The notes: generated by a model from the letters alone, not told the origin. A DNA stretch of 24,000 nt from Thiolinea sp. (GCA_049292455.1 JBATRF010000014.1:112318-136317), one strand, 5' to 3'; numbered from the stretch's first letter, positions 2,469 through 23,383 are shown. Numbers and translations: made by a program.

Positions 2469-2470
2469 GT

Positions 2471-5440: not shown

Positions 5441-5787
5441 TCCAGTGCTCCCTTTTTCCATTCATAAATAAAACCAATCCCTAAGATGCCTAAGAATAGA
5501 CACATGGCTAATAGGCCAGCGGTGCCTATTTTATCCAGCACGATAGCCCAAGAGAAGAGATAGGCAATTTCCAAATCGAAAATGATAAAGAGAATAGCAA
5601 CGAGGTAATAGCGGATGTCAAAGCGAATGCGTGCATCTTCAAAAGCATCAAAGCCGCACTCAAAGGGAGAATCTTTAGCAGCATCAGGACGACGCGGGCC
5701 GACTAATAAACCTAGAGTCAGAAGGACGACGGCAAGGCCGATTCCGACGGCAAGAAAGATAAACACCGGTAAATAGGCCTGCAACAT
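5431..5787 (-). CDS. nuoA: NADH-quinone oxidoreductase subunit A
   Basis: Three-TM small subunit with the PFECGF motif and a C-terminal [11 protein letters not shown]. The ATG at 5787 is preceded by AGGAG (5793-5797). The TTG at 5802 used by the ORF track would overlap that RBS. Confidence 0.93.
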
Positions 5788-6131: not shown

Positions 6132-7424
6132 TTAGGAGGCGATGTTGGATTCACTAGCTTTTAACTCTGGAACCTGTTCAATACTCGGTAGTGGTTGATT
6201 GGCAATCGCTAGTTCAAAGGCTTTTAAGCGCTTATAGATAGAGAGCAATTCAACAATCGTTGTCCATGAATTAACCAAATATTGGAAGGAGCCTTCAACA
6301 CGGCCGAAAGCTCGTAAAATCTGCTGCATCACACCCAAAGTGAAGCCGCCCGCGATAATGGTTGGCCCTAAAGCAATATAAGGCACTAATACCCCTACTT
6401 GTAGATAGCTGTAGCGAGCCACATTGAAATACAAATAATTGAAATACAGCCTGAAATAGTTTTTGCGCACATCCGTAAATAAGTCTTTCAGTACAGGCGG
6501 ACTAGCACGATTCGCATTATCCTCACCATAAACTAACTCTTTACGATAAGCTGCTTCAACTCGTTGATTCTTAAACTCTAAGCCCGGCAAGCGAATGCCG
6601 ACTAAGGCGAGCAAGCCTGTACCTAAGACCGACCAAATCAAGGCAACCCAAACTAGCGCATGAGCCACTTCCCCAACCACCGGCAGCGCTTTCACATGCG
6701 CGGATAAAGCCCAAAGAATGGGTAAGAAAGCGATCAAAGTCATGACAGAGTCCACTAGACTCACGCCTAAACTTTCCATAATGCTTGAAAAGCGCATGGT
6801 GTCTTCTTGTACCCGCTGCGAAGCACCTTCAATATGCCGAACCCGTGTCCACAGACCGGTGTAATAATCATTCATCGCAGTACGCCAACGGAAAATCCAA
6901 TGACTGACAAAAAAGCGGGTAAATACCGATAAAGTCACCGCAACTAAAGCAATCTTGCCGAAAGTGAGTAGCTGCCCATAATACTCACTAGCAGTGATAC
7001 TGTTCGGTTTAGCGAGGGCTTGTTGAATGGAGTCATAAAACGTCCCAAACCAATCATTGATCAAGACATCTAAATGCACTTGGAACCAAGTCACGAAAAT
7101 AATTAAAGCAGTCCCTAACACTGACCAGCGCGCCCATTTACTGGGCGAAATAAACATCCACACCCCAACAAACAAGGCATAGCAGTAAAACATATACTGA
7201 TAAAACCAAAATTCAGCACCAGGATTGATCACTGGCTCAGCGGTGGCGGCAGCCCCTTCAGCCACAGGCGGTGGAATAATATAGTCATAGCCAAATAGTC
7301 CGCCGAAGCTCAAATATTGACCCAGCTGCTCACCGTAAAAGAACCAAGTCAACACACAGAGCAATGACCAAAGGACAAAGCTCCAAAAAAACCACTTCGG
7401 GCTTGGAAAAAAAGATTTAAACAT
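6132..7424 (-). CDS. sbmA: SbmA/BacA-family peptide (antimicrobial peptide/microcin) uptake transporter, transmembrane-only form
   Basis: 430-aa polytopic ORF with long blocks that I recognise from E. coli SbmA: MFKSFFP..., [121 protein letters not shown] lies 8 nt upstream of the ATG. Confidence 0.9.
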
Positions 7425-7462: not shown

Positions 7463-9154
7463 CTAGCTTAATAAGCGCCGTAATAGCGGACTACTGACCC
7501 ATTCCTCACCTGTCAGTAAATAGTGCAGTACTTTTTGATTCTGTGTAGCCCATTGCATTTGTTCATACGCATGATAAGGGGCGCACATCAAGATACGATC
7601 TCCCGCTTGCAACAAAGTTTCCTCATCGGGCACTAGCAAGAGAACATCTACTCTTTTTAACAACAGCGGAATAATAGGAAGATCTTGGTCGCGCTGCTCC
7701 GGCTTTGCAATCACATATTTAAGGGGTACACGCTCGCCTGCTGCACAAGCTCTATACAAAGCGGGCGAATGGCGCGGCGTCACCTTGGTTTCCCATAAAT
7801 AAGGTACTTTATCTTGAGTGATACCAATGATGCGACTTAACAATTGATCGACCCAAGCTTTATCTTCAGCCGCTACCAAACGTAGAAAACTGCGCGCTAA
7901 AGGAGTACGCAACATGGTAAACATCTGGTGCGCAATCACATCGCCGCGATTCATGGTCAATTGGAAATGCGCGCGCTCAAAAATCAGTGAATTATCTTGC
8001 TGACTCTGGCGTGCCACCATAAACAGCTTCGGATTTAACTCGCGAGCTGTCATTAGCACCGATAAGTTAGTAGCATCATCACTAGTAGCAGCAATAATCC
8101 CTACGGCTGAATCAATCCCAGCCAGCTTCAGCGATTCAATATTGGCTTGATAGCCCATTAAACTATTGACTGGCGCATTCGGCAGATCAGTTTTTAAATC
8201 AATTACATGAACTTCAATGCCAATGGCATTCAAACGTCGATATACTGCTTGCCCAAAGCGTCCGTAGCCAATTAACAACCAAGAACCAGGCTTAGGAAAA
8301 CTAGGATCTTTTAGCGACTGATTCGGAATGCCAGTCAGCCATTCACTGAGCAAATAATGACTGGGCTTGGTGATGACTAAATCGAGGCGCTCAGCAAATA
8401 CTTCAAAGGGACTGATGACTTCATTACCGCCAAAGGAACGGATCGAAGTCACAATTTCTGGGCTTTCTGCACGCGCTAACAAGCGTAAATGAGGCTTAAA
8501 TAACTCGGTACTGAGGGCAATCAATAAATTCGCTTGATCAGAGTCGGTGAGCGCGATCACTCCCTTGCAATAAGGGCTGAGCACTCCAGCCCATTCTAAC
8601 ACTTCAGGTTTAGAGGCATCGACCGTCAATGCTAAGGGGCGGCCTAAGGTATCACGCAACTCTAAGGCATTGATCCGATTCTCATCTTTATCCAAAACGA
8701 CGGTACGCACCCCCTCTTGGGCTAAGGCTTGTACTAAGCGCGAGCCAGTGTCGCCATAACCACACACCAGATAAAACGGCTCATGCAATAGTTTTATTTT
8801 GGTACGAAACTTAGACTCACGACGCAAGCGATAAATCGCCGGATCTTGGAGTACCGACAACAAGGAACCAATGCTATATAACCAACCAATGACGCTGGTA
8901 TAAATGGTAATGGTCGTCCACAAGCGCTGTGCATCGGTGAACGCATAGGGAATTTCACCAAAACCAATGGTCGAGGCGGTGTAGCTCACAAAATAGAAGG
9001 CATGAAAATACGACATCATCCAGACATTGCCGTCATTATCTCGACCCGGAATAAGGACAAAGCCAATAATCGAAACGGCATAAATTAGAATTAACGTGAC
9101 CAAGGGCACACGTAGCCGCTTCATGAGAACGTAATAGAGATTAGGTCTAGCCAT
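7463..9154 (-). CDS. Two-TM pore-loop cation (K+-type) channel with two tandem RCK/TrkA-N domains and a TrkA-C-like tail
   Basis: 563 aa. It has an N-terminal TM-pore-TM region with the filter-like sequence YTASTIGFGEIPY. Two Rossmann motifs are present: LVCGYGDTGSRLV...VVLD and LLIGYGRFGQAVY...VIDL. The C-terminal LLQAGDRILMCA resembles TrkA-C. Confidence 0.8.
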   Translation of the reverse strand: MARPNLYYVLMKRLRVPLVTLILIYAVSIIGFVLIPGRDNDGNVWMMSYFHAFYFVSYTASTIGFGEIPYAFTDAQRLWTTITIYTSVIGWLYSIGSLLSVLQDPAIYRLRRESKFRTKIKLLHEPFYLVCGYGDTGSRLVQALAQEGVRTVVLDKDENRINALELRDTLGRPLALTVDASKPEVLEWAGVLSPYCKGVIALTDSDQANLLIALSTELFKPHLRLLARAESPEIVTSIRSFGGNEVISPFEVFAERLDLVITKPSHYLLSEWLTGIPNQSLKDPSFPKPGSWLLIGYGRFGQAVYRRLNAIGIEVHVIDLKTDLPNAPVNSLMGYQANIESLKLAGIDSAVGIIAATSDDATNLSVLMTARELNPKLFMVARQSQQDNSLIFERAHFQLTMNRGDVIAHQMFTMLRTPLARSFLRLVAAEDKAWVDQLLSRIIGITQDKVPYLWETKVTPRHSPALYRACAAGERVPLKYVIAKPEQRDQDLPIIPLLLKRVDVLLLVPDEETLLQAGDRILMCAPYHAYEQMQWATQNQKVLHYLLTGEEWVSSPLLRRLLS

Positions 9155-9676: not shown

Positions 9677-10423
9677 ATGCGTATTCCTCGCTTTTATTGC
9701 CCGATTGAACTTGAATTAAAGCAAACCCTTATACTGCCAGACGAAGTCTTTCGGCATGCCATTCAAGTTTTACGCTTACAAGTCGGGGGAAATCTGCTGC
9801 TCTTCAATGGGCAAGGCGGTGAGTATCTGGCTGAATTAATCGAAGTGGGTAAGCGCTCTGCTACCGTGATGCTAAACAGCTTTAACTCCACTCATAAAGA
9901 ATCACCTTTAGAACTGACTTTAGTGCAAGCCCTGCTTAAACCAGACAAAATGGATTTTGCCTTGCAGAAAGCCGTGGAACTAGGCATAACTAGCTTTCAG
10001 CCACTGATCACCCAACGCAGTGTCGTACGGACTGATAAAGAAAAAATTGAGAAAAAACTTCAACATTGGCAAGCCGTAGCGATCAGTGCCTGCGAACAAT
10101 GTGGCCGGACTCACTTACCCTCCATTCAAGTACCACAAACCTTAAACCATTACCTTAGCAACTTAGATAGCACTAGCCACTCTGTGATCTTAGCGCCTGA
10201 TAGCACCAAAGATTTAACTCAAATTACGGTAGCCAGCCAGAAACTAGCCGTCATAATTGGCCCAGAAGGTGGTTTTACTGACGAAGAAGTCCAGCTGTGC
10301 TTAGAGGCGGGTATACAAGCTGCTTCTCTAGGGCAGCGGATTTTAAGAGCCGAAACCGCCAGTACTAGTGTCATCGCTATTCTACAGCTACTGCATGGCG
10401 ATTTAGGGATTCGGCGTAGTTAA
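9677..10423 (+). CDS. rsmE: 16S rRNA (uracil1498-N3)-methyltransferase RsmE
   Basis: 248 aa. It begins MRIPRFY... and contains ...QHWQAVAISACEQCGR... and ...IGPEGGFTDEE...LGQRILRAETA, which match the RsmE/SPOUT family pattern. Confidence 0.9.
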   Translation: MRIPRFYCPIELELKQTLILPDEVFRHAIQVLRLQVGGNLLLFNGQGGEYLAELIEVGKRSATVMLNSFNSTHKESPLELTLVQALLKPDKMDFALQKAVELGITSFQPLITQRSVVRTDKEKIEKKLQHWQAVAISACEQCGRTHLPSIQVPQTLNHYLSNLDSTSHSVILAPDSTKDLTQITVASQKLAVIIGPEGGFTDEEVQLCLEAGIQAASLGQRILRAETASTSVIAILQLLHGDLGIRRS

Positions 10424-11359
10424 CTGCTGCTCGGTTTGCACAAAATACTCATCAATCGTTAAAGTAGGTTTTAAGCGTAGATCCCAAGCACTTAAATTAC
10501 GATTGAAATTGGCTTGACCGGTAAACTCATTGCCTACTGCCCATTGATCAGTTAAGTCCATCGCCTGATAAACTAATAAAGGTGCACTAAACAATAAGGC
10601 TACCCCTAAAGCAGACCAACGCTCAGCATGGTGTACAAGGCGGATATACACATAAAACAAGAGTGGTATTAATAAGAAATTACTCAGTAATAATAAATAA
10701 TTTAAAGGCCAATTAGCAGTAAAGAAATAATTTAAACCATGACCTAATTCACCCAATAGATGGGGAACTAGCATACACAAAGATGCTAGACCCAAAGCTG
10801 GAAAAAATTCCCAACGCTGATTAGCTAAACGGCTAATACCGGCGATAATTAAAGCTAAAGCAATCATGCCCAATAAATAAGGCATCACACTGCTGAAATA
10901 ATAAATCAGTTCTTTATTAAAGATACTCTGAATATAAGCCTCATATAAAAACGCTGCTACCGTTAATGAGGCTAAGGCAATCGAGCAGACTGGTCTGCAA
11001 AATACTCTTAGCCAGCCACCACAACGACTCGCACTGGCTTGTGCAACCTGCATGCCACTGGTTAACAGCCGAGCACGCCGATTACCAATCCGCAAATTCG
11101 CAGGCTGTGCTAAGGTTAGGATGGACTCTTGCAAGCCTCTACCATTTAAGCGTGTGCCATTTTCTTTCGATAAATTACGTAAAGCCAAACCTTGATCAGT
11201 CTGGTCGATTTCTAAGTGATAAGCAGAAACAGTCGGGTCTGAGAGGATAATATCATTATCTAACGCACGGCCAATCCGTACTGGAAATTGAGTTAAATTA
11301 TGATATTGATTTAAGGGGCGTAGCTGTATTTCCAGCAAAATGGTATCTAAGTTTGCCAT
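10403..11359 (-). CDS. FHA-domain protein with a C-terminal polytopic membrane region
   Basis: 318 aa. Residues ~20-100 carry the FHA signature residues (VRIGR, VSAYH, ENGTRLNG). Residues ~115-265 form 5-6 hydrophobic segments, followed by a ~50-aa polar tail. The ATG at 11359 overlaps the upstream protease gene by 13 nt (ATGGCAAACTTAG). Confidence 0.8.
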   Translation of the reverse strand: MANLDTILLEIQLRPLNQYHNLTQFPVRIGRALDNDIILSDPTVSAYHLEIDQTDQGLALRNLSKENGTRLNGRGLQESILTLAQPANLRIGNRRARLLTSGMQVAQASASRCGGWLRVFCRPVCSIALASLTVAAFLYEAYIQSIFNKELIYYFSSVMPYLLGMIALALIIAGISRLANQRWEFFPALGLASLCMLVPHLLGELGHGLNYFFTANWPLNYLLLLSNFLLIPLLFYVYIRLVHHAERWSALGVALLFSAPLLVYQAMDLTDQWAVGNEFTGQANFNRNLSAWDLRLKPTLTIDEYFVQTEQQLTTPNP

Positions 11360-12642
11360 TTGAAATTCTCAAACACTTGCTTCACTAGCAGCATGGATTC
11401 TTTGAAATCGACGCCTGTCAAAAATAACTCAAACAAAAATCCTTGGTGCTTTTGACTCACCATTGCACCCGTCACTAAAACATCACTCAAGCCGCTATAG
11501 CGCAAATAATCACGGTGACAGACTGTCATTTTAAAGGCTTGGCTGGCGATATCGACAAATTGAGTATCACATTTAAACTCAGTGACATTTTCCTTGCTGG
11601 ATCGATTATCCGTTTCATCCGTATTTTGCGCTTCATACATACGATAAAAACGCGGCGGAATCATTTTTTCGCTCTCATACCAAGTATATTGGTATTGCAG
11701 ACTACCTACACTGAGTTTCTCATCTAAGTAAATCTCGCGTTCATTCGAGCAATTCACCGAAATCACATTGACTAAGCCACGATCCTCATCCGCTTCGCTA
11801 CCATCCCAACAATTAATCGATTTATCAATACGGCTAGGTACTTGAAAATTGCCTACTGCAACTAATTTCCAAGGATTAGACTTAATGCGCTTGAGCATGT
11901 CGATACTGCTGGCTTTGAGCTGCTGCACGATAGAATCATGCAGGTTTTTGGCTGGGATAAAGTTACGCGCTTTGACCTGCGCTAACAGTGCGTCTAAATA
12001 GTCAGTGGCTACTAAAAAACTAACCGCATTCCCTGCGGTCGCTACATTCACGCCAATCACTGCGCCTGCTTGATTTAAAGCAGGGCCACCACTCATGCCT
12101 GAATTCAAATTGCCTGAGAATAGGATGTTTTTATCCTCACTCTCAGTCAGTAGGCCATTGTTAGTGCCCGTGACTACTGAAAATCCTAAACCTAAGGGAT
12201 TTCCAAAAGCATACAGGGTCGCGCCTTTTTCAGGAATGTCAGCTGTTTTTAACGGTGTACCCAAGTCTTTATCAGCTGCTAACACAGCTAAATCGTGCAA
12301 CACATCGACATCAATCAGATTGAGCGAGCCTGTGGAACCGTCCGTTCCAAGATAATCAATCGAGTAAGTATCGGGATCATTGATATACGCACTGACGACA
12401 TGATAATTCGTAGCGAGCAATTGAGCCTGTTCAACCACAAAACCTGAACCTATCGTGCGCTTATGCCCAGTTGTCCGATTAATGACTCTAATTTGATAAA
12501 TGGAATGCTGTACCTCAGCATATAAACTTGAGGAGCGATCAACAGCCTGTACACTCACAGGCTGTACAATCAACAGGATCATTAGTAATAAGCAGCAGAG
12601 TTTTGGTAGCTCACTATAGTAATAATTACGTATACCAATCAC
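11347..12642 (-). CDS. Secreted/periplasmic trypsin-fold (S1, Trypsin_2-like) serine protease with an unassigned ~210-aa C-terminal domain
   Basis: 431 aa. The GTG start at 12642 is preceded by GAGG with 5-nt spacing. It has a signal-peptide-like N-terminus (...LLLMILLIVQPVSVQA/VD). The putative triad is His in ATNYHVV, Asp in HDLAVLA and Ser in NSGMSGGP. No PDZ-like region was recognised. The C-terminal half contains 4 Cys and matches no family I know. Confidence 0.8.
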   Translation of the reverse strand: MIGIRNYYYSELPKLCCLLLMILLIVQPVSVQAVDRSSSLYAEVQHSIYQIRVINRTTGHKRTIGSGFVVEQAQLLATNYHVVSAYINDPDTYSIDYLGTDGSTGSLNLIDVDVLHDLAVLAADKDLGTPLKTADIPEKGATLYAFGNPLGLGFSVVTGTNNGLLTESEDKNILFSGNLNSGMSGGPALNQAGAVIGVNVATAGNAVSFLVATDYLDALLAQVKARNFIPAKNLHDSIVQQLKASSIDMLKRIKSNPWKLVAVGNFQVPSRIDKSINCWDGSEADEDRGLVNVISVNCSNEREIYLDEKLSVGSLQYQYTWYESEKMIPPRFYRMYEAQNTDETDNRSSKENVTEFKCDTQFVDIASQAFKMTVCHRDYLRYSGLSDVLVTGAMVSQKHQGFLFELFLTGVDFKESMLLVKQVFENFKWQT

Positions 12643-14060: not shown

Positions 14061-14714
14061 TTACTGAGCCGAGAAGAAAATATCTCCATATTTAGCCGCC
14101 GCTTCACCACCACTATTATCCGTATCGGTCATTAAGGCTATCCCATCAATCGTTTTAATATCGACGCCATACAGCTTTTTAAAATCCGCACGTACATTGC
14201 GCTTTTCAGTCACCCAAACTCCAGCTTTATCTTGTTTACCGCGCACTGCTAGCATCTGCGCATTCTTTGGTAAATAAGCATTGCCCCAACTAGCGCCGCG
14301 TGCTGAACTGCCTGACCAGACATAGTTGACTGCTTTTGAATTCCACACCAGTAAGCCACCATCGACAATTACATAAATACGCGCAGCATAATCATCGCCT
14401 GCTTTCGTTTGCTCCTCTAAAGCAGGTAAGGCTTGATCGACTCGCCATGACCAATTCAAAAAAGGTGTTTTGGTTAAATCGACTTCGATTTTACGGGTTA
14501 AACCCGAAGCAGCCGCTTTACTCTTGGCACTCAAGACCCAACGTTGCCCCTCTTGCACTAATTGATACTGCGTCTTGCCTTTGAATACCTTGTCATCCCA
14601 AGCTTGCAATTGTTTGGCTGAAAATTCGCCGATAGGCAGTTTGCTATCCGCTGCGTACAAACTAGTGCTTAATAAGCAAGCACCCAGTAAACTCCATGCT
14701 TTCAAAATCATCAT
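14061..14714 (-). CDS. Secreted DUF3047-like protein
   Basis: Contains blocks I associate with DUF3047: LNWSWRV, GDDYAARIYVIV, NYVWS, LMTDTDNSGGEAAAKYGDIFF. The likely start is the MM pair at 14714/14711, with GGGAG just upstream, giving the signal peptide MMILKAWSLLGACLLSTSLYA/AD. The upstream 34 codons in the ORF track are probably spurious. Confidence 0.7.
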   Translation of the reverse strand: MMILKAWSLLGACLLSTSLYAADSKLPIGEFSAKQLQAWDDKVFKGKTQYQLVQEGQRWVLSAKSKAAASGLTRKIEVDLTKTPFLNWSWRVDQALPALEEQTKAGDDYAARIYVIVDGGLLVWNSKAVNYVWSGSSARGASWGNAYLPKNAQMLAVRGKQDKAGVWVTEKRNVRADFKKLYGVDIKTIDGIALMTDTDNSGGEAAAKYGDIFFSAQ

Positions 14715-14750: not shown

Positions 14751-14786
14751 TGCATCTAATACGCAGTAGCTGTGCGTATAGATGCA
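14751..14786. promoter_or_regulatory. Imperfect palindrome TGCATCTAATACGCA-N7-TGCGTATAGATGCA in the divergent promoter region (candidate operator)
   Basis: Arms at 14751-14765 and 14773-14786 are reverse complements apart from a single 1-nt indel. The palindrome is centred in the ~104-bp gap between the DUF3047-like gene (-) and the flavoprotein gene (+). Confidence 0.4.
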
Positions 14787-14818: not shown

Positions 14819-15943
14819 ATGACACATTTAGTATTAATCGGTGGAGGGCATGCCCATGTAGCAGTCCTGAGCGCTTTAGCCCAACAGTCCTTACCTAATT
14901 TGCGCTTGACGGTGATTAGCCCACAAGCCTATCAAACCTATTCAGGTATGCTGCCGGGCTGGTTGGCGGGACATTACAGTCTTGAAGAATGCCAAATTAA
15001 CTTGGCGCCTTTAGTGGCTGCGGCTCAAGGTGAATTAATCCTTGATAAAGTCATCCGCTTAGATGCTAATCAGCAATGCCTAGAAACAGCCAGCGGGCAA
15101 CTGATTCACTATGATGTACTCTCCATCAATAGTGGTAGCGAAACAGCTTTACCTGCTAATAGTGCTAGCAACTTAATCCCGATTCGCCCTTTAGAACGCT
15201 TATTAACTGCTTGGCCACAGATTTTAAATCATGCCCAGCAAGACAATTATCAGCTAGCAGTGTTAGGCGGAGGTGCTGCTGGCATCGAGTTAGCACTGGC
15301 TATTCAATATGCTTTCCAGCAAAAAGGCGCTGCAGCTCAAGTGCATTTAATAGCACCTAAACTCTTAGCGGATCACTCGCCGACCGTACAACAGCGTGTA
15401 CAAGGGCAATTAGCTAAAGCAGGGGTTCAAGTTCACTCTGCCAAGGCCAGTATCGAAAATGGAGTGCTTTTCCTTGAAACCGGTGAATCCATTCAAGCCA
15501 ATCAAATTCTTGCGGCCACTGGCGCAAAAGCACCCGCATGGTTAGCAACTTCTGGTTTAACAGTGGATTCACACGGCTATATTGCGGTGAATGCTCAACA
15601 CCAAAGCCGCTCACACCCTAATGTGTTTGCCGCTGGTGATTGCAGCTCGCGTGAAGATTTAAACTTTGGCCGCTCTGGCGTGCATGCTGTGTATGCAGGA
15701 AAAGTGTTGGCGCATAACCTGCCTGCTTTTATTAATCAGCAGAGCCTGCAAAGCTATTACCCGAAAAAGCGCTCACTGTACTTACTTGCGACAGGCCCCA
15801 AACATGCGATTGCCTCTTGGGGAACTTGGAGTGCGAGTGGCACTTGGGTTTGGCATTGGAAAAATCACATCGATCAAAGTTTTATGCGACACTATCGCAT
15901 GAAAACTAGCCCACTATTAAACCCTGCCGAGCAGCAATCATGA
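14819..15943 (+). CDS. NDH-2-like FAD-dependent pyridine nucleotide-disulfide oxidoreductase family protein
   Basis: 374 aa. It has an N-terminal Rossmann motif LVLIGGGHAHV, then YSGMLPGWLAGHY, a second dinucleotide motif LAVLGGGAAGIELA, and FAAGDC near the C-terminal third. From memory it resembles the subfamily found fused N-terminally to SelD in some genomes (TIGR03169); this is not verified. Confidence 0.75.
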   Translation: MTHLVLIGGGHAHVAVLSALAQQSLPNLRLTVISPQAYQTYSGMLPGWLAGHYSLEECQINLAPLVAAAQGELILDKVIRLDANQQCLETASGQLIHYDVLSINSGSETALPANSASNLIPIRPLERLLTAWPQILNHAQQDNYQLAVLGGGAAGIELALAIQYAFQQKGAAAQVHLIAPKLLADHSPTVQQRVQGQLAKAGVQVHSAKASIENGVLFLETGESIQANQILAATGAKAPAWLATSGLTVDSHGYIAVNAQHQSRSHPNVFAAGDCSSREDLNFGRSGVHAVYAGKVLAHNLPAFINQQSLQSYYPKKRSLYLLATGPKHAIASWGTWSASGTWVWHWKNHIDQSFMRHYRMKTSPLLNPAEQQS

Positions 15944-18090
15944 AAAAATCACTGCTGCTAGCCAGCGTTCTATTACTGATTATTTTATTTTTCGTTTTCG
16001 ATCTCGATCGTTATTTAACCTTAGAGCAGCTCAAAGCTAGCCAAGCGCAATTTGCTAGTTGGCAAGCAGAGCATCCTTGGTTATTCGCCTTAGGTTATTT
16101 TGTTATCTATGTGCTAATCACCGGACTTTCGCTACCGGGTGCAGCCATTTTGACTTTAGCAGGGGGAGCAATTTTTGGTTTATGGCAAGGCTTATTACTC
16201 GTTTCCTTTGCCTCCTCTATCGGTGCTACGCTGGCCTTTCTCGCTTCCCGCTATTTATTTCGTAATGCTGTCGAGCAGCGTTTTAGCAAGCAATTAGCAG
16301 CGATCAATCAAGGCATTGCTAAAGAAGGTGCTTTTTATCTGTTCACCTTGCGCCTTGTGCCGCTATTTCCTTTCTTTATTATTAACTTATTAATGGGTCT
16401 CACCCAGCTGCCGACTCGTACTTTTTATTGGGTGAGCCAATTAGGTATGTTGGCAGGCACGATTGTATATGTGAATGCTGGTACGCAGCTCGCGCAAATC
16501 TCTAGCTTAAGTAATATCCTCTCCCCTAGCCTGCTGTTATCTTTCATTTTACTGGGCATTTTTCCTTGGATAGCTAAAGGTATTTTGGCTTTTATTCAAG
16601 GTCGACGAGTTTACCAAGGGTTTACTAAGCCGAAGCAATTTGATCGCAATTTAATTGTAATTGGTGCAGGTTCAGCCGGTTTGGTTTCTTCCTATATTGC
16701 AGCGGCTGTCAAGGCTAAAGTCACCTTGATTGAAGCGCATAAAATGGGCGGAGACTGTTTAAACTATGGCTGTGTTCCGAGTAAAACACTGATTAAAAGC
16801 GCTAAAGTCGCCCAACAAATTCGACACGCCGCTGATTATGGAATCGAGAGCCCTGCCCCTACTGTTCAATTTTCGCAAGTCATGCAGCGGGTACAGGCTG
16901 TGATTGATGAAGTAGAGCCGCATGATAGTGTCGAACGCTACACTCAATTAGGCGTTGAGGTCTTACAAGGCTATGCCAAGCTGCTTGATCCTTGGACTGT
17001 CGAAATTAAATTCCCAGATGGCTCCAGCCAACGTCTTAGCGCTCGCAGCATTATTTTAGCCACTGGCGCACAAGCGAATATTCCTGAATTTCCGGGGATT
17101 GAGAACTCTGGTTATGTGACCAGCGACACCTTATGGGAACGGTTTGCTGCCCTAGAGCAAGCGCCTGAGCATGTAGTGATTTTAGGCGGAGGCCCGATTG
17201 GTTGTGAGCTTGCGCAAGCCTTAACTCGCTTAGGCTCAAATGTTAGCATCATTGAAAAATCGGCACGCATTTTAGCCCGTGAAGATAGCGATGCTGCGCA
17301 AATTGCCGCCCAAGCCTTACAAGCGGATGGTGTAAAACTATTGACTGAGCATCAGGTACTACGCTTTGAGCAAAGCGGCACTAGCAAACAAGTCATGGTG
17401 CGAACCCAAGGCCAAGAGTTAGCCATTCCTTATGATCAAGTTATTATCGCTTTGGGCCGCAAAGCACGTTTAACAGGGTTTGGTTTAGAAGAGCTAGGCC
17501 TGCCAACTGAGCGCACTATCTCTACCAATGAATACTTAGAAACTTTATTTCCGAATATTTATGCCGCAGGCGATGTCGCAGGGCCTTATCAATTTACCCA
17601 TGTCGCCGCCCATCAAGCCTGGTATGCCAGCGTGAATGCTTTGTTTGGGCAGTTCAAACGCTTCAAAGCGGATTATCGAGTCATTCCGCGCGTCACCTTT
17701 GTCGACCCAGAAATTGCCAGCGTGGGCTTCACTGAGCAAGAGGCACAAGCTCAAAACATCGCTTATGAACTCAGTCATTTTGAATTGGCCGAACTGGATC
17801 GTGCAATTGCCGAGGGCACGAAAACGGGCTTTATTAAAGTATTAACTGTGCCGGGTAAAGATAAGATTTTAGGTGTGACGATTGTGGGCGCACAAGCAGG
17901 CGAGTTATTAGCAGAATATGTGCTCGCCATGAAACATGGGTTGGGCTTGAATAAAATCTTAGGCACGATTCATAGCTATCCGACTTTGGCGGAAGCGAAT
18001 AAATACGTAGCTGGTACTTGGAAACGTCAACATACCCCAGAACGTTTGCTGGCTTGGGTGGCACGCTATCACGCTTGGCGACGCGGCTAA
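15940..18090 (+). CDS. Fusion protein: DedA/TVP38/TMEM64 (SNARE-associated) membrane domain + class-I flavoprotein disulfide reductase
   Basis: 716 aa. Residues 1-~220 are polytopic and carry the LPGAAILTLAGGAIFG TVP38-type motif. Residues ~235-716 have IVIGAGSAGL, the redox-active GGDCLNYGCVPSK, VILGGGPIGCE, YAAGDV and the C-terminal HSYPTLAE His-Glu dyad. There is an ATGA overlap with the upstream gene. Confidence 0.85.
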   Translation: MKKSLLLASVLLLIILFFVFDLDRYLTLEQLKASQAQFASWQAEHPWLFALGYFVIYVLITGLSLPGAAILTLAGGAIFGLWQGLLLVSFASSIGATLAFLASRYLFRNAVEQRFSKQLAAINQGIAKEGAFYLFTLRLVPLFPFFIINLLMGLTQLPTRTFYWVSQLGMLAGTIVYVNAGTQLAQISSLSNILSPSLLLSFILLGIFPWIAKGILAFIQGRRVYQGFTKPKQFDRNLIVIGAGSAGLVSSYIAAAVKAKVTLIEAHKMGGDCLNYGCVPSKTLIKSAKVAQQIRHAADYGIESPAPTVQFSQVMQRVQAVIDEVEPHDSVERYTQLGVEVLQGYAKLLDPWTVEIKFPDGSSQRLSARSIILATGAQANIPEFPGIENSGYVTSDTLWERFAALEQAPEHVVILGGGPIGCELAQALTRLGSNVSIIEKSARILAREDSDAAQIAAQALQADGVKLLTEHQVLRFEQSGTSKQVMVRTQGQELAIPYDQVIIALGRKARLTGFGLEELGLPTERTISTNEYLETLFPNIYAAGDVAGPYQFTHVAAHQAWYASVNALFGQFKRFKADYRVIPRVTFVDPEIASVGFTEQEAQAQNIAYELSHFELAELDRAIAEGTKTGFIKVLTVPGKDKILGVTIVGAQAGELLAEYVLAMKHGLGLNKILGTIHSYPTLAEANKYVAGTWKRQHTPERLLAWVARYHAWRRG

Positions 18091-18114
18091 AAATTTATCT
18101 ACAGGACTTATTAC

Positions 18115-19290
18115 ATGCAATTCAAATTTCTCAATTTAACCGCGCTAGCACTCGCTAGTAGCCTTAGTTTTAATGTGCAAGCGGCTGAAACCGATTGGGC
18201 AAAGATCGAACAGACTGCTAAAGGCCAAACGGTCTATTTCAATGCTTGGGGTGGCGGTGAAAATATCAATAACTATCTTGAATGGGCGGCTGAACAAGCC
18301 AAGCAACGTTATGACATTACGGTGAAGCATGTGAAAATCACCGATGCCGCTGAAGTGGTCAAACGCATTCAAACCGAGCAACAAGCAGGGCGCACGACCG
18401 ATGGCTCCGTCGACTTAATTTGGGTCAATGGTGAAAATTTTAGCGCCCTTAAGCGTGGGAAATTATTGTACGGGCCGTGGGCAGAGCAATTACCCAATTG
18501 GGTTAATGTCGATACTAAGAAGCCTGTTCAGCAAGATTTCTCAGAGAGCACCGATGGCTTAGAAGCACCGTGGGGAACTGCACAGCTCACCTTTATTGCT
18601 GATCGTAGTAAAGTCGCTAGCGCTCCTGATTCAGCCACTGCTTTATTAGAGTTTGCCAAGCAAAATCCAGGACGCGTCACTTATCCCAAACCACCTAGCT
18701 TTCATGGCACTACTTTTCTCAAACAATTACTGCTAGAGCTAAGCGCTGAGCCTAGCGCTTTAACTAAACCTGTCGATCCTGCTCAATTTGAGACGATCAC
18801 TAAGCCACTTTGGGAGTACCTTGATCAACTGCATACCGTCGCTTGGCAACAAGGCAAAAGTTTCCCCGCTAGCGATTCAGAAATGCATCAAAAATTAGCA
18901 GATGGTGAATTATTGATTTCCCTCACTTTCAATCCTAATGAAGCAGCCAGCCTGATTGAAAAAGGCAGTTTACCGAAAACCGCTTATAGCTTTGGCTTCA
19001 AGCAAGGCACGATTGGCAATGTGCACTTTGTAGCGATTCCCTTCAATACCAAAGCGAAAGAAGGCGCACAAGTCTTTGCTAATTTTTTACTTTCCCCTGA
19101 AGCACAAGCCCGTAAAGCCGATGTGAAAGTTTGGGGTGATCCGAGTGTGTTGCTGGCTGATAAGTTACCAACTGCGAACAAAGAGGCCGCCGCCAGCACG
19201 CTACCTGCTGACATACCCACCTTAGCCGAGCCGCATGCGAGTTGGGTGGAAGCTTTGGAAAAAGCATGGTTGCAGCGCTACGGCAGCTAG
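18115..19290 (+). CDS. ynjB: ABC transporter periplasmic substrate-binding protein, YnjB-like
   Basis: 391 aa with the signal peptide MQFKFLNLTALALASSLSFNVQA/AE. AGGA lies 8 nt upstream of the ATG. The size, the gene order (binding protein, double-length permease, ATPase, CDP-alcohol transferase) and the YnjF homologue downstream match the E. coli ynjBCD...ynjF cluster as I remember it. Confidence 0.65.
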   Translation: MQFKFLNLTALALASSLSFNVQAAETDWAKIEQTAKGQTVYFNAWGGGENINNYLEWAAEQAKQRYDITVKHVKITDAAEVVKRIQTEQQAGRTTDGSVDLIWVNGENFSALKRGKLLYGPWAEQLPNWVNVDTKKPVQQDFSESTDGLEAPWGTAQLTFIADRSKVASAPDSATALLEFAKQNPGRVTYPKPPSFHGTTFLKQLLLELSAEPSALTKPVDPAQFETITKPLWEYLDQLHTVAWQQGKSFPASDSEMHQKLADGELLISLTFNPNEAASLIEKGSLPKTAYSFGFKQGTIGNVHFVAIPFNTKAKEGAQVFANFLLSPEAQARKADVKVWGDPSVLLADKLPTANKEAAASTLPADIPTLAEPHASWVEALEKAWLQRYGS

Positions 19291-20948
19291 GCTTGCAGAA
19301 GCTGACGGCAAATAACTTGGCTAAACGTGCTCCCCATAATCCAGTCGATTGGATGTTATGGGGAGTCGCTTGGTTAGGCGTGCTAGCTATTTTGGGGTTG
19401 CCATTGCTGGGGTTAATCCCAGCCCTTAGTGAGGGTTTGAGTGCAAACAATGGGCACTTGCTTTGGGCTGACTCACAAACCTTACCTGCCTTAAAACTCA
19501 CCCTATTTTCAGCAGGTATTTCGACTGCTTGGTCTTTGTTCTTAGCCTGTTCGCTGGTGTTTTTATTTTACCCCTCGCGAACTTGGCAGCGTATACAGCG
19601 ACAATTACCTCTTTTTTTAGCCATGCCCCATGCGGCTTTTGCGATTGGTTTGGTCTTCTTGTTAGCGCCCTCTGGCTGGCTAGTACGTTTAATCACGCCC
19701 TTATTTACTTGGACAGCACCACCGCATTGGATCACCACGCAAGATCCTTATGCCTTGAGTTTGACGCTTGCCTTAGTTCTAAAAGAAACTTGGTTTCTAC
19801 TCTGGGTGCTCACTAGCCTGCTTAATCAAGACTGGCTGCTCAAACAAAGTCTAGTCGCGCAGAGTTTGGGCTATGGTCGCTGGCAAATAGGCTGGCAAAT
19901 TCTATTTCCGCAGTTATTAAGGCGCTTAGCGTGGCCGTTACTCGCAGTGTTTGCTTATGGTTTGTCGGTGGTGGATATGGCGCTAATTATAGGTCCATCG
20001 ACTCCGCCGACTTTGGCCGTGCTCGCTTGGCAATGGTTTACCGATCCTGATCCAACTCAGCAATTAAAAGCGCAGAGCTTAGCTTTGCTGCTGATTGGCT
20101 TATTGCTGGTGGGTGTAGCCTTGGGCTATTTAGCTTATTGGCTATTCAATAAAATGCTTGCGACACCGACCGGCAGACGTAATAAGCTGCGTACTTATTC
20201 TGTGTTTAAACTAGCGCTCAGCAGCCTACTCAGTTTGCCTATTTGGCTAGCTTTGTTTTTATTACTGCTATGGTCAGTAGCAGGTTCATGGTTTTTTCCG
20301 CAGATTTTTCCTGCTAACTTCAGTTTAAATGCTTGGCAGCAAGCTGATTTAGTGCCGTTTGGCACTACTATTTTCATTGCTAGTTGCTGTGTTTTCATCG
20401 CCCTACCCTTAACTCTGCTTTGGTTAGAATGGGGGAACAAGCAGCAAGCTTGGTTATATATTCCCTTAATTATTCCTGCTTTACCTTTTACTGCTGCACA
20501 GTATCAAATCGCTTTAGTATTAGATTTCGACGGGAATTTGGCTGCCGTGATTTGGAGCCATTTAGCTTGGGTCTTGCCCTATATGCTGCTGACGCTCGCA
20601 GGAGCTTATCGGAATTTTGACGAGCGCTTTGTGCTCACGGCAAAAACCTTAGCTTATAAGCATTGGCAAGCCTGCCTTTATATTAAATGGCCGATGCTGA
20701 TTCGCCCGATCTTAGGGGCTTGTGCCGTAGGTTTTGCGGTGAGCGTAGCGCAGTATTTGCCCACTTTATTTATTGGCGGCGGGCGGATTGAAACAGTTAC
20801 TACTGAAGCAGTCAGTTTAAGCGCAGGCGGCAATCGCTCAAATTTAGCCGTGCAAGCGGTGCTGCAAGCCTTATTGCCCCTAATCGCTTTTGTCTTCGCC
20901 GCTAGTGTGAGCCAGTGGTTGGGACGTAAACACCAAGGATTAAAATAA
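19266..20948 (+). CDS. ynjC: ABC transporter permease, fused double-domain type, YnjC-like
   Basis: Polytopic ORF of ~12 TM and ~530-560 aa. The start is uncertain. Candidates are ATG 19266 (overlaps ynjB by 25 nt), TTG 19293 (2 nt after the ynjB stop) and ATG 19353. The stop overlaps the ynjD ATG (TAATG). Confidence 0.7.
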   Translation: MVAALRQLGLQKLTANNLAKRAPHNPVDWMLWGVAWLGVLAILGLPLLGLIPALSEGLSANNGHLLWADSQTLPALKLTLFSAGISTAWSLFLACSLVFLFYPSRTWQRIQRQLPLFLAMPHAAFAIGLVFLLAPSGWLVRLITPLFTWTAPPHWITTQDPYALSLTLALVLKETWFLLWVLTSLLNQDWLLKQSLVAQSLGYGRWQIGWQILFPQLLRRLAWPLLAVFAYGLSVVDMALIIGPSTPPTLAVLAWQWFTDPDPTQQLKAQSLALLLIGLLLVGVALGYLAYWLFNKMLATPTGRRNKLRTYSVFKLALSSLLSLPIWLALFLLLLWSVAGSWFFPQIFPANFSLNAWQQADLVPFGTTIFIASCCVFIALPLTLLWLEWGNKQQAWLYIPLIIPALPFTAAQYQIALVLDFDGNLAAVIWSHLAWVLPYMLLTLAGAYRNFDERFVLTAKTLAYKHWQACLYIKWPMLIRPILGACAVGFAVSVAQYLPTLFIGGGRIETVTTEAVSLSAGGNRSNLAVQAVLQALLPLIAFVFAASVSQWLGRKHQGLK

Positions 20949-21589
20949 TGCTCAGCATTCACAATCTCAGCATTCAACAACAGGCACATTATTTAATTCG
21001 TGACTTAAACCTGCAGGTTAATGCCGGTGAAGTCCTAACCCTGATGGGCGCTTCCGGCGTAGGCAAATCAACGCTGCTCAGCTGGTTGATTGGTGCTTTA
21101 CCAACAGCTTTTGTGGCGAGTGGTCAGGCTTATTTAAACCAGCAGCAAATTGATCAACTCCCTACCGAGCAGCGCCGAGTGGGTATTTTATTTCAAGATG
21201 ATTTGTTATTTCCGCATTTGAGCGTGGGGGGCAATTTAGGCTTTGCCCTGCCTGCCAAGATCAAAGGAGCTGAGCGCAAAATGCAAATTGAAGCGGCTTT
21301 AGCTCAAGCCGGTTTAACAGGCTTTTACCAACGCGACCCTAGCAGTTTATCGGGTGGGCAACGCGCTCGTGTGAGTGTATTACGCGCCCTGCTCGCTCAG
21401 CCTCAAGCTTTGTTATTAGATGAACCCTTTGCACGCTTAGATACCGAATTACGGCAGCAATTTCGCCAGTTCGTCTTTACGCAAATTACTGAACTTAACA
21501 TTCCAGCTATTTTAGTTACGCATGATCAGGCTGATAGCCCTGAGGGTGGACATATCATTCGGTTAGAGGAGCAGCGCTATGTTAGATAG
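20948..21589 (+). CDS. ynjD: ABC transporter ATP-binding protein, YnjD-like
   Basis: 213 aa with Walker A GASGVGKST, ABC signature LSGGQRARV, Walker B LLLDEPF and H-loop VTHD. Confidence 0.85.
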   Translation: MLSIHNLSIQQQAHYLIRDLNLQVNAGEVLTLMGASGVGKSTLLSWLIGALPTAFVASGQAYLNQQQIDQLPTEQRRVGILFQDDLLFPHLSVGGNLGFALPAKIKGAERKMQIEAALAQAGLTGFYQRDPSSLSGGQRARVSVLRALLAQPQALLLDEPFARLDTELRQQFRQFVFTQITELNIPAILVTHDQADSPEGGHIIRLEEQRYVR

Positions 21590-22187
21590 CCTAGTGTTGA
21601 AACATAGCAAACAGCAACAAATTCAACTGGCTCAGCGAGTCATCCAATGGGGCTTCAATGCCAATCAAGTCACTGTTATTGGCTTCTTGATCGGCATCAG
21701 TGCTTTACCCTTATTAGCCTTTGAGCATTATTGGCTGGCCTTGCTAGCTATTTTATTGAACCGCCTGTTAGATGGTTTGGATGGCACGATTGCCCGCTTG
21801 ACGCAAACCTCTGATCGCGGTGGCTTTTTGGATATTGTGCTAGATTTTTTATTCTATTCAGCCATTCCTTTGGGTTTTGCACTGGCAAATCCTACAGAAA
21901 ATGCCTTAGCAGCAGCAGTATTAATCTATAGTTTTATAGGTACGGGTAGTAGTTTTTTAGCCTTTGCGATTTTTGCAGCTAAGCGCCAAATAAGTAGCTC
22001 AGTTTATCCCCATAAAAGCTTCTACTATCTAGGCGGTTTAACAGAAGCTACTGAAACTATTCTAGTATTTACCTTGATGTGCTTAATCCCAGCTTGGTTT
22101 AGTGAGCTTGCTTATTTATTCGCTTCTTTATGCTTTATTAGCACAGCTTTAAGAATTTATACCGGCTGGATAAACTTTCGCGACTGA
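21579..22187 (+). CDS. ynjF: CDP-alcohol phosphatidyltransferase family membrane protein, YnjF-like
   Basis: 202 aa and polytopic. It has the motif DGLDGTIAR-x7-GGFLDIVLD (D-G-x2-A-R...G-x3-D-x3-D). Blocks such as LLNRLLDGLDG, FIGTGSSFLAFA and HKSFYYLGGLTE resemble E. coli YnjF as I recall it. GAGGAG lies 7 nt upstream of the ATG, and the gene overlaps ynjD by 11 nt. Confidence 0.75.
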   Translation: MLDSLVLKHSKQQQIQLAQRVIQWGFNANQVTVIGFLIGISALPLLAFEHYWLALLAILLNRLLDGLDGTIARLTQTSDRGGFLDIVLDFLFYSAIPLGFALANPTENALAAAVLIYSFIGTGSSFLAFAIFAAKRQISSSVYPHKSFYYLGGLTEATETILVFTLMCLIPAWFSELAYLFASLCFISTALRIYTGWINFRD

Positions 22188-22230: not shown

Positions 22231-22258
22231 GATAATTATTGCGAGCGAGGTGCTGAAA

Positions 22259-23383
22259 ATGCTTAAGCCTTTATTGACTATTTCTGTGTTGGCTTTCACC
22301 ACACAAGCGGCCTTAGTACAAGCGGATCAAGTCATTGAATTGCCCGTGGAATCAACACGCGCCGAGGTAACTCTTGATTATGCTAATGCCCGGTCGGTGC
22401 AACCTAAACTGACAGGCGCTCTGGATTTGGATCTGAATGCTAACTCAGCAGTGCGAGCAGCCGGTCAAGCAGGCTTTACTCAAGGAGGTGTTGGTAGTGG
22501 CCAGACATCTCCTGTGCAACTGTTAGATAGCGCTACGAGTGAGTCTTTAGCCCAACAGGCAGTTGCAGATAGCCGCGCTTATGGGACTGCAGGTCTGCCC
22601 TTCACGACTTCGCGGGTAGACATGGGTGGGCTGCAACTTTCAAAAGTGGATTATTTCCGGCGTGCAGGGCGCTTATTTTTTAAAGTGGGCGCTGACACTG
22701 GCGTTTGTTCGGCTTCTCTGATCAAGCCGGGCGTAGTAGTCACGGCTGCACATTGTGTTGCTGAGTTTGGCAGCAATACAGGTTATACCAATTTCCAATA
22801 CATACCTGCTTACTATAAAGGCCAAGCCCCTTACGGAGTTTGGACTGCAGCCAAAGTTTATGTCATGGATAGTTATGTGAATGGCAGTGCCAGTTGCGCG
22901 CAACCTGGTATTGTTTGCACCAATGATATTGCGGTGATCAAATTAGCGCCTAAAGCGGGTAAATACGCAGGGCAGCAGACGGGCTGGTTTGGTTATGCTT
23001 GGAATGGCTTTGGGTTTGTGGAAGGCAAAACACAAATAACTCAATTAGGCTATCCCAGTTCGCATGATGGTGGTGAGCTGATGCAGCGCACGGATGCGGG
23101 TGGACAAGTCTTCGCGGACGTATCCAATAATACCGTGATTGGTTCACGCCAAACAGGTGGCTCAAGTGGTGGCCCTTGGTTAGTCAATTTCGGTGAAGCC
23201 GCCAAACTTCAAGGTACTACTCTGGGTATCGATGGAAAAATGAATATAGTCGTGGGCACAACCAGCTGGGGGCCGAATGATAGTGCCTTAAAATTTATGG
23301 GAGCTAGCCCTTTTACCAGCACAAATATAGTACCCTTGATGAAAGCAGCCTGCCCTGCTGCCAATACGGCAGGCTGCAAGTAG
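22259..23383 (+). CDS. Secreted trypsin-like (S1 family) serine protease with a long N-terminal pro-region
   Basis: The ATG at 22259 has GAGG 8 nt upstream; the ORF track begins 9 nt earlier at a GTG. The signal peptide is MLKPLLTISVLAFTTQAALVQA/DQ. The triad context is VVTAAHCV (His), NDIAVIKL (Asp) and TGGSSGGPW (Ser). About 130 residues precede the catalytic domain. Confidence 0.8.
   Translation: MLKPLLTISVLAFTTQAALVQADQVIELPVESTRAEVTLDYANARSVQPKLTGALDLDLNANSAVRAAGQAGFTQGGVGSGQTSPVQLLDSATSESLAQQAVADSRAYGTAGLPFTTSRVDMGGLQLSKVDYFRRAGRLFFKVGADTGVCSASLIKPGVVVTAAHCVAEFGSNTGYTNFQYIPAYYKGQAPYGVWTAAKVYVMDSYVNGSASCAQPGIVCTNDIAVIKLAPKAGKYAGQQTGWFGYAWNGFGFVEGKTQITQLGYPSSHDGGELMQRTDAGGQVFADVSNNTVIGSRQTGGSSGGPWLVNFGEAAKLQGTTLGIDGKMNIVVGTTSWGPNDSALKFMGASPFTSTNIVPLMKAACPAANTAGCK

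Follow-up and report, generated by a model that had tools for sequence, protein, structure and literature searches.

Why would a bacterium pack two flavoprotein reductases, a binding protein-dependent importer and a lipid-type phosphotransferase into one row of genes? This question is raised by a stretch of 24,000 nucleotides from Thiolinea sp. (GCA_049292455.1 JBATRF010000014.1:112318-136317; this whole stretch is called the window hereafter), in which six co-directional open reading frames (ORFs) occupy positions 14819-22187 of the plus strand. They encode a TIGR03169 flavoprotein, a fusion of a DedA domain with a disulfide reductase, the three components of a YnjBCD-type importer and YnjF. 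In this study, we propose that these six genes very probably make up one operon and, with a divergent DUF3047 gene, a conserved functional unit. All functional readings given here are guilt by association.

The packing is that of a single operon. The six genes share one direction, neighbours overlap or lie at most 24 nt apart in the ORF reading, no terminator is found inside, and the six-gene order is identical in Thiothrix eikelboomii. Genes 1 and 2 share an ATGA overlap (15940-15943), gene 2 and ynjB are separated by a 24-nt gap that holds AGGA (18091-18114), ynjC and ynjD share a TAATG (20946-20950), and ynjD overlaps ynjF by 11 nt (21579-21589) with GAGGAG upstream. An earlier note, made from the sequence alone, had placed the six ORFs at the same coordinates and described the same four junctions, and direct reading agrees with it throughout. 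It had also left the start of ynjC ambiguous, rightly so: the longest ORF begins at 19242, while an alternative TTG at 19293 lies 2 nt past the ynjB stop codon (TAG, 19288-19290). The TTG is favoured because ynjC of T. eikelboomii begins 7 nt past the ynjB stop with a closed frame upstream, and because the N-termini align. Between positions 13900 and 23600 we counted 8 promoter-like consensus sites (12.9±3.6 in shuffled sequence) and 13 terminator-like sites (11.9±2.9 in shuffles), no excess in either case and none of either kind at a junction, where the earlier note had seen neither a hairpin nor a promoter-sized gap. Its further claim of a terminator-like element past 22187 did not survive: the element is a weak 7-bp A/U-rich hairpin with the stability of shuffled sequence (z = 0.59) and is missed by the terminator scan. 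An Rfam search of the same interval at E <= 1 gave zero matches, and thus no riboswitch, that for thiamine pyrophosphate (TPP) included.

The first two genes provide the redox part of the unit. Gene 1 (14819..15943, +) encodes an FAD/NAD(P)H oxidoreductase of the FSP1/NDH-2/AIF-like type that covers positions 2-365 of the TIGR03169 model ('Nterm_to_SelD') with 366 bits (cut-off 310). Its nearest sequences in the PDB are FSP1/AIFM2, the NDH-2 YjlD, AIF and SQR, and a motif check revealed neither a transmembrane segment nor a redox-active Cys pair. No SelD-like ORF is fused to it or located near it in the 24-kb window. Gene 2 (15940..18090, +; Pfam VTT_dom, Pyr_redox_2 and Pyr_redox_dim) combines a COG0398/TVP38-type DedA domain at residues ~1-216 (PF09335, 81.5 bits, cut-off 33.9) with a class I pyridine-nucleotide disulfide reductase at residues 236-716 (Pyr_redox_dim, 102 bits). 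The reductase has all features of the class I disulfide oxidoreductases (GR/LipDH/MerA group), namely C273LNYGC278, GAGSAG242, GGGPIG416 and the His-Glu dyad (HSYPTLAE), and these are invariant in eight diverse fusions. The protein falls below all equivalog cut-offs. LipDH (394.8 against 408.8 bits) and GR (288.6 against 480) were rejected on score, and MerA was rejected on score (370 against 454) as well as on the C-terminus (...YHAWRRG), which has no Cys pair. A positively charged linker past the last hydrophobic segment would, by the positive-inside rule, place the reductase domain in the cytoplasm. Gene 2 is 60-83% identical to homologues across lineages, the nearest being that of T. eikelboomii (83%), which together with the identical gene order there points to a relative of Thiothrix as the source of the window. 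When compared with the DedA proteins of the E. coli ynj locus only, its DedA part shows 32% identity with YdjX (1e-18) and 37% with YdjZ. To our knowledge, the COG0398 branch, which is nearest to human TMEM41B/VMP1, has no established bacterial function. The DedA~reductase type (PF07992/PF02852) is reported to be the commonest fusion of COG0398 DedA proteins, and the latter have been argued to resemble eukaryotic phospholipid scramblases, an activity inferred from eukaryotic homologues only (PMC10127716).

Genes 3 to 6 supply the transport and lipid parts. Gene 3 (18115..19290, +) encodes the periplasmic substrate-binding protein YnjB (PRK11622, 541 bits, cut-off 203), with 57% identity to E. 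coli YnjB and a signal peptide ending in VQA. Orthologues of YnjC and YnjD follow directly, which completes an importer of the YnjBCD type. Gene 4 (19293..20948, +, start by orthology) is a fused double-domain permease of the ATP-binding cassette (ABC) class with about 12 hydrophobic segments and 40% identity to E. coli YnjC over 522 amino acids; BPD_transp_1 matches its C-terminal half, and CysT-like and ModB-like matches span both halves. Gene 5 (20948..21589, +) encodes the short ABC ATPase YnjD (ABC_tran, 110 bits; 52% identity to E. coli YnjD). Gene 6 (21579..22187, +) encodes YnjF, a membrane enzyme of the CDP-alcohol phosphotransferase family (PF01066, 45.9 bits, cut-off 22) with 53% identity to E. 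coli YnjF over the full length. The family motif D-x2-DG-x2-AR...G-x3-D-x3-D is complete (DGLDGTIARLTQTSDRGGFLDIVLD, residues 65-89) and located at the same position in the E. coli protein. The nearest solved relatives are DIPP synthase (4mnd) and AF2299 (4o6m). Against equivalog models for PIP, AIP, PC and PS synthases, YnjF stays far under all cut-offs, its best and still sub-threshold matches being synthases of the inositol-phosphate type. Pfam and NCBIfam matches together with the E. coli identities confirm every domain call that the earlier note had made for the six genes.

What the importer carries is less easily read. The structure prediction that the earlier note had asked for yielded a confident AlphaFold2 model of YnjB (predicted local distance difference test, pLDDT, 87.9) that resembles cluster-D binding proteins. 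The nearest solved binding proteins share 12-17% identity with it and bind 2-aminoethylphosphonate (2-AEP), polyamines, gamma-aminobutyric acid (GABA), Fe3+, metal-citrate, sugar phosphates or thiamin. One of these ligands has found its way into annotation: KEGG/JGI labels several homologues as 'putative thiamine transport system', and the set of a binding protein, a fused double permease and a short ATPase indeed resembles ThiBPQ, with ThiQ among the ATPase matches. That YnjBCD is a thiamine importer with unrelated neighbours is nevertheless hardly credible, since thiamin-binding 2qry ranks only 50th structurally at 17% identity, a TPP riboswitch is lacking, thiamine genes occur in none of about 170 loci examined and it is lipid and redox genes that are conserved as partners.

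The four ynj genes lead directly to E. coli, where the K-12 locus b1750-b1758 reads ydjX (DedA)-ydjY-ydjZ (DedA)-ynjA (AhpD-like)-ynjB-ynjC-ynjD-ynjE (rhodanese), with ynjF convergent. The genes ydjXYZ-ynjABCD are listed as a single FNR-activated operon (PMC3688515). Besides the YnjB, YnjC, YnjD and YnjF orthologues, the window and the E. coli locus have in common the COG0398/TVP38 subtype of DedA and a thiol-redox component between the DedA gene and the importer, the E. coli genes being co-transcribed. They differ in that E. coli carries two free DedA proteins, YdjY, YnjA and YnjE, whereas the window carries one DedA~reductase fusion, TIGR03169 and DUF3047; moreover, the window has ynjF at the end of the operon, and E. 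coli has it in convergent orientation. Since the importer already has DedA and thiol-redox genes as operon partners in E. coli, we regard the window, judging from gene content, as a variant of this known but uncharacterised locus, in which the fusion and the TIGR03169 flavoprotein would replace the free DedA proteins and YnjA/YnjE. The combination is thus not the unusual one that the earlier note took it for, as ydjXYZ-ynjABCD shows (PMC3688515). The note had also described the E. coli cluster as carrying the rhodanese gene ynjE instead; ynjE is present, yet not instead of the other elements, as DedA and AhpD-like YnjA are found there too.

If the window is one version of a wider theme, the same parts should be found together elsewhere. 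We compared 160 related loci plus three plasmids (labels such as L001 are locus numbers), taking the best 80 loci of each of two scans: genome loci anchored on YnjB and metagenome loci anchored on the fusion. Counts for the YnjB anchor refer to 45 loci with adequate flanks and a radius of 9 kb for DedA genes, and those for the fusion anchor to 33 loci with at least 4 kb on both sides and neighbours within 8 kb; representative neighbour genes, when checked against curated family cut-offs, passed. Seen from YnjB, ynjC is present in 42 of the 45 loci, ynjD in 41 and ynjF in 37. A DedA-type gene lies within 9 kb in 29 of the 37 loci that have both ynjC and ynjF; it is the reductase fusion (whole or split) in 15 and a free ydjX/Z-type gene of enterics in the remainder. 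TIGR03169 (9 loci) and DUF3047 (six loci) are repeatedly found alongside. Seen from the fusion, the neighbours are YnjF (18 of 33), YnjBCD (10), DUF3047 (10), TIGR03169 (9), TIGR04283-like (9), TIGR04282-like (8), DUF547 (8) and ArsS-like proteins (7; 9 for the ArsS/TIGR04283/TIGR04282 set), a TonB-dependent receptor (5) and SelD (2). Importer and YnjF occur together in 8 loci, YnjF alone in 8 and the ArsS set alone in 7; two loci combine importer, YnjF and ArsS set, and 8 have none of them. The fusion, 60-67% identical to gene 2 across this census, is the hub, and its commonest partner is YnjF. A neighbour-joining tree of the fusion mixes the partner types, so that Ynj adjacency takes at least 15 changes to explain and the ArsS set at least 12. 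Truncated contigs inflate both numbers, which still demonstrate repeated reshuffling and rule out one inherited accident.

The set recurs in at least eight gene orders among Alpha-, Beta- and Gammaproteobacteria and on plasmids of Klebsiella, Pseudooceanicola and Pseudoalteromonas. In the window and in T. eikelboomii a divergent DUF3047 gene precedes TIGR03169, the fusion and ynjB-C-D-F. Vibrionaceae have the fusion followed by ynjB-C-D-F, and Burkholderiales and Marinobacterium have ynjB-C-D-F, the fusion, DUF3047 and, in some cases, TIGR03169. The order is ynjB-C-D-F, TIGR03169, fusion and DUF547 in L025, while marine Gammaproteobacteria and a Pseudoalteromonas plasmid (L171) have a TonB receptor, the fusion, DUF547 and ynjB-C-D-F with a lipid hydroxylase. 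On a Pseudooceanicola plasmid (L170) the fusion is followed by ynjF, ynjB-C-D and TIGR03169. The Klebsiella pneumoniae plasmid p_b78b_NDM5 (L169; NZ_CP095588.1, ~214-225 kb), a conjugative IncC/IncF NDM-5 plasmid, carries the six-gene set on an island flanked by IS26/IS4321 in the order fusion, TIGR03169-like gene and ynjB-C-D-F, with ynjC split in two ORFs. Here, the set lies directly 3' of a bufferin operon (DUF2282-BufB-HvfC-like-DoxX), with genes for an extracytoplasmic function (ECF) sigma factor, an AhpD-like and a TetR protein alongside. In tblastn searches, plasmids of Providencia, Citrobacter and Salmonella match with equal identity (56.3%) and score.

The neighbourhood search suggested in the earlier note therefore finds the adjacency in other genomes too, so that the uniqueness which the note had named as refuting does not hold, and its view of the reductases, YnjBCD and YnjF as one functional unit is upheld by the recurrence in at least eight orders, three proteobacterial classes and plasmids. 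It is true that each of the two modules (DUF3047/TIGR03169/fusion and YnjBCDF) is also found solo. A chance adjacency of two independent modules is nonetheless extremely improbable in view of this recurrence, of junctions that overlap or nearly do so, of the fusion within 9 kb in 15 of the 37 loci with ynjC and ynjF, of YnjF within 8 kb in 18 of the 33 fusion loci, and of the co-transcription of DedA genes with ynjBCD in E. coli (PMC3688515).

Apart from these loci, there is a subgroup of YnjB homologues (~55-59% identical) with no ynjC, ynjD or ynjF nearby (L024, L029, L030, L034, L042, L046 and L076). They are mostly from Rhodoferax and other Burkholderiales, most adjoin M16 peptidase genes and some ftsY, and they may represent an orphan binding protein with another partner.

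The divergent gene upstream (14061..14714, -) encodes a secreted DUF3047 protein (Pfam PF11249, 194 bits; signal peptide MMILKAWSLLGACLLSTSLYA). It probably belongs to the module: of 76 loci anchored on the fusion, 25 have a DUF3047 gene beside it, with labels verified by Pfam at 153-233 bits. Its AlphaFold2 model (pLDDT 88) is a beta jelly roll, for which the closest solved folds are carbohydrate-binding modules, lectins, glycoside hydrolase family 12 (GH12) domains and CFAP20 (TM 0.45-0.56), so that the modelled fold bears a weak resemblance to carbohydrate-binding modules. E. coli YdjY was considered as a distant counterpart and ruled out (hhalign probability 0.1). The 104-nt promoter region between the divergent genes contains an inverted repeat, TGCATCTAATACG-N11-CGTATAGATGCA, with arms of 13 and 12 nt (14751..14786), which lies 33 nt 5' of the ATG of gene 1 and is present as a single copy in the window. 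The arms are unchanged in T. eikelboomii (L002:8808-8843) while the spacer has diverged, and the repeat is a candidate operator; no regulator gene is adjacent to it.

Across the loci, the importer slot is swappable. In the metagenome loci L152 and L153 (~8.6-17 kb) TIGR03169 is followed by the fusion, a DoxX/MauE gene, a nucleoside transporter of the concentrative type (CNT) and YnjF, with gaps of 19-45 nt and a convergent DUF1499 gene, so that the CNT transporter sits in the exact slot of YnjBCD. A TonB receptor is often added to the importer, lying directly upstream in L103, L106, L119, L120 and L171. Further neighbours recur as well. A gene for an FA_hydroxylase/OlsE-like membrane enzyme is adjacent in eight loci and in L171, and DUF1499, DoxX/MauE and, beside YnjB, an APH-family kinase are found repeatedly. 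The ArsS/TIGR04283/TIGR04282 set is an alternative partner whose members score above their cut-offs, and L111 and L112 carry the ArsS set and YnjBCDF together. Genes for SelD, rhodanese, AhpD-like and bufferin proteins are recurrent neighbours too, with YnjE and YnjA as the rhodanese and AhpD-like protein of E. coli. In L019 (5989-9573) a glutathione reductase and an EgtB-type sulfoxide synthase (EgtB 573 bits, cut-off 360; SenA 388, below 420) are encoded immediately upstream of ynjB, and in L018 an EgtB-related candidate gene (cluster u65) adjoins the fusion. Mer operons are located near the module in L008 and L016; in the latter, a Rhodoferax metagenome-assembled genome (2038-7824), ynjB is convergent with TIGR04282/TIGR04283 and has an APH-family kinase upstream, with merA-merC 1-3 kb off. 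Two themes emerge among these neighbours, i.e., membrane lipids and the redox chemistry of chalcogens/metalloids or of metal stress. Of the sulfur or redox theme hinted at in the earlier note, redox is retained while sulfur is too narrow, as the ArsS set, SelD, EgtB, mer and bufferin point wider.

The metal-related neighbours bring in a different explanation, according to which the region is an envelope defence island against metal or oxidative stress. Flavoproteins and lipid enzymes would protect or remodel membrane lipids, YnjBCD would import a protective low-molecular-weight thiol or antioxidant (e.g., ergothioneine-like), and YnjF would adjust the phospholipid composition; this overlaps with the explanation that we prefer, but its core is protection from stress, and it needs no new head group. 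It accounts for the bufferin operon directly 5' of the set on the Klebsiella plasmid (bufferin being a copper-chelating ribosomally synthesised and post-translationally modified peptide, RiPP; BufB 384 bits, cut-off 310), for the carriage of the module by conjugative multidrug-resistance plasmids, on an island flanked by IS26, and for MbnB/HvfC/DoxX-type genes beside the module in L004, L008, L039, L066 and L079. The ECF sigma factor genes that adjoin it in L169 and L170, the mer operons nearby in L008 and L016, and EgtB and glutathione reductase in L019 fit as well, as do FSP1 and NDH-2 as nearest solved relatives of gene 1. Moreover, bufferins guard against copper (PMC11626156), and BaeR slightly induces ynjA and ynjB in E. 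coli (PMC2731931). We consider this explanation unlikely, although it is the main rival: bufferin, mer or ECF-sigma genes are seen in only ~10 of ~160 loci and not in the window, the genes of the module go unmentioned in the papers on bufferins, and the ArsS/TIGR04283/TIGR04282, SelD, TonB receptor and CNT partners are left unexplained.

The SelD partners, in turn, suggest salvage of selenium or another chalcogen, in which YnjBCD (with TonB elsewhere) scavenges organoselenium, the reductases yield selenide for SelD and YnjF is loosely coupled. TIGR03169 is defined as the domain N-terminal to SelD, and TIGR03169~SelD fusions indeed lie beside ynjBCD/fusion in L010 (13493-15778, -; 761 amino acids) and L126 (13737-16142, +; 801 amino acids), their SelD domain reaching ~291 bits against a cut-off of 125, while L132 has a free SelD straight after TIGR03169. 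The best sub-threshold matches of E. coli YnjA and YnjE are '(seleno)protein' families, and the presence of a TonB receptor implies that a scarce nutrient is being scavenged. However, just 2 of the 33 fusion loci with good flanks have an adjacent SelD gene, none is found in the 24-kb window, and neither YnjF, the commonest partner of the fusion, nor the lipid-enzyme neighbours are explained. This makes selenium salvage a poor candidate.

The explanation that we tentatively prefer combines import of a polar compound with its attachment to a lipid. YnjB would bind a small polar molecule on the periplasmic side for import by YnjCD, and YnjF would then link this molecule, or something derived from it, to a lipid by a phosphodiester bond, with CDP-diacylglycerol as the likeliest donor. 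The COG0398 DedA domain would move the lipid or head group across the inner membrane. The fused NAD(P)H-dependent disulfide reductase and the TIGR03169 flavoprotein would supply reducing power at the membrane face and hold the head group, or a thiol or quinone acting on it, in the reduced state. DUF3047 would be a periplasmic beta-jelly-roll partner, possibly a binding protein. In other bacteria, the ArsS/TIGR04283/TIGR04282 set would make such a compound internally. The idea of import, coupling and scrambling is strengthened by the lipid-enzyme neighbours and the swappable importers, and the chain proposed in the earlier note (import of a head-group alcohol or thiol, which is kept reduced, attached and scrambled) is compatible with all findings. 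A redox-active chalcogen or metalloid (S, Se or As) is probably part of the compound, which may be derived from ribose or a nucleoside, as suggested by the CNT transporter in the importer slot, the ArsS partner genes and the APH-family kinase. A more specific version is distinctly less probable, and we consider it improbable as it stands: YnjF and the fusion would build and translocate an undescribed phospholipid with a ribose- or nucleoside-derived organo-As or organo-Se head group, resembling an arsenosugar-phospholipid, which is scavenged (YnjBCD, CNT, TonB) or made by the ArsS set and in which the flavoproteins set the redox state of the heteroatom.

Several points weigh against the import and lipid-coupling explanation. 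The ligand of YnjB is not readable from its model, as the nearest binding proteins, at their low identity, are unrelated to one another in ligand. CDP-alcohols may also serve as donors for CDP-alcohol phosphotransferases, so that transfer of a phosphatidyl group by YnjF is an assumption. The sub-modules occur solo too, with YnjBCDF lacking a DedA gene in 8 of the 37 loci and the fusion being accompanied in places by DUF547 only. Among the ORFs of the window, none encodes ArsS, SelD, a rhodanese or DUF547. The majority of ArsS-type loci have no YnjF within 8 kb, so YnjF is not an obligatory downstream step of the ArsS pathway, at least in-cluster, and the simple model in which YnjF attaches the ArsS product is weakened. 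The census itself is limited by crude ORF calling, blastp labels, truncated contigs and redundant relatives. Finally, a literature search on ynjF/ynjBCD, TIGR03169, DUF3047, the ArsS neighbourhood and the bufferin neighbours returned no functional data on the module; DUF3047 and DUF3641 are mentioned in one paper, but in unrelated clusters (PMC3597751).

The surroundings of the unit in the window are of a different nature. Secreted trypsin-like serine protease genes flank the region on both sides (10403-12642, -, and 22250-23383, +). The upstream one overlaps a gene with an FHA domain, and this pair is kept in T. eikelboomii; the downstream one was excluded as a member of the unit, as T. eikelboomii has an amidohydrolase gene after ynjF instead. 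Further upstream lie ordinary housekeeping genes that are syntenic with T. eikelboomii, namely nuoB-C-D-E-F of complex I (1173-5461, -), an SbmA/BacA-family transporter (6132-7424, -) and a K+ channel with a TrkA_N domain (7463-9154, -).

YnjBCD, YnjF, YdjX and YdjZ have long been orphans in E. coli. The census ties them, the widespread DedA~reductase fusion, TIGR03169, DUF3047 and DUF547 into one mosaic network, which extends to ArsS 'arsenosugar' genes, SelD and lipid hydroxylases and is also carried by multidrug-resistance plasmids of clinical origin. We found no description of the neighbourhood network of the fusion, YnjF and YnjBCD in the literature, and the wider gene network around the fusion is apparently undescribed. 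Its study may reveal a new class of membrane lipids or a new envelope stress defence. Should the organo-As/Se phospholipid prove real, it would give a function to E. coli ynjF, ynjBCD, ydjX and ydjZ and to the COG0398 fusion, and it would identify how the lipid is attached in the biosynthesis of arsenolipids or selenolipids, a step that has been missing so far.

Beyond the E. coli locus, four known systems come closest. Gene 2 is a full-length member of the family annotated as 'Bifunctional TVP38/TMEM64 family protein/FAD-dependent oxidoreductase' (56-83% identity to named examples), for which the literature gives neither function nor neighbourhood; the links to YnjF and the other partners come from the present census. 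The mer operon (MerT/MerC to MerA) likewise pairs membrane transport with a class I FAD disulfide reductase that has a CxxxxC motif and acts in the cytoplasm, yet gene 2, without the C-terminal Cys pair and NmerA of MerA, keeps the His-Glu dyad of true disulfide reductases. In bacterial choline import with Pcs, an importer that depends on a binding protein brings in the head-group alcohol and an enzyme of the CDP-alcohol phosphatidyltransferase family condenses it with CDP-diacylglycerol. The same logic of import and condensation is proposed here for YnjBCD and YnjF, but YnjF scores 26 bits against the Pcs cut-off of 440, and the Pcs pathway has neither flavoprotein reductases nor a DedA protein. 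The role of ArsS in making arsenosugars is known from cyanobacteria and is a putative one in the proteobacterial clusters considered here. These clusters ('arsenosugar biosynthesis', formerly rSAM/selenodomain-associated) hold a 60-67% identical fusion and DUF3047, often with TIGR03169, DUF547 or SelD, whereas the window has none of their three signature genes and carries the importer and YnjF in their place.

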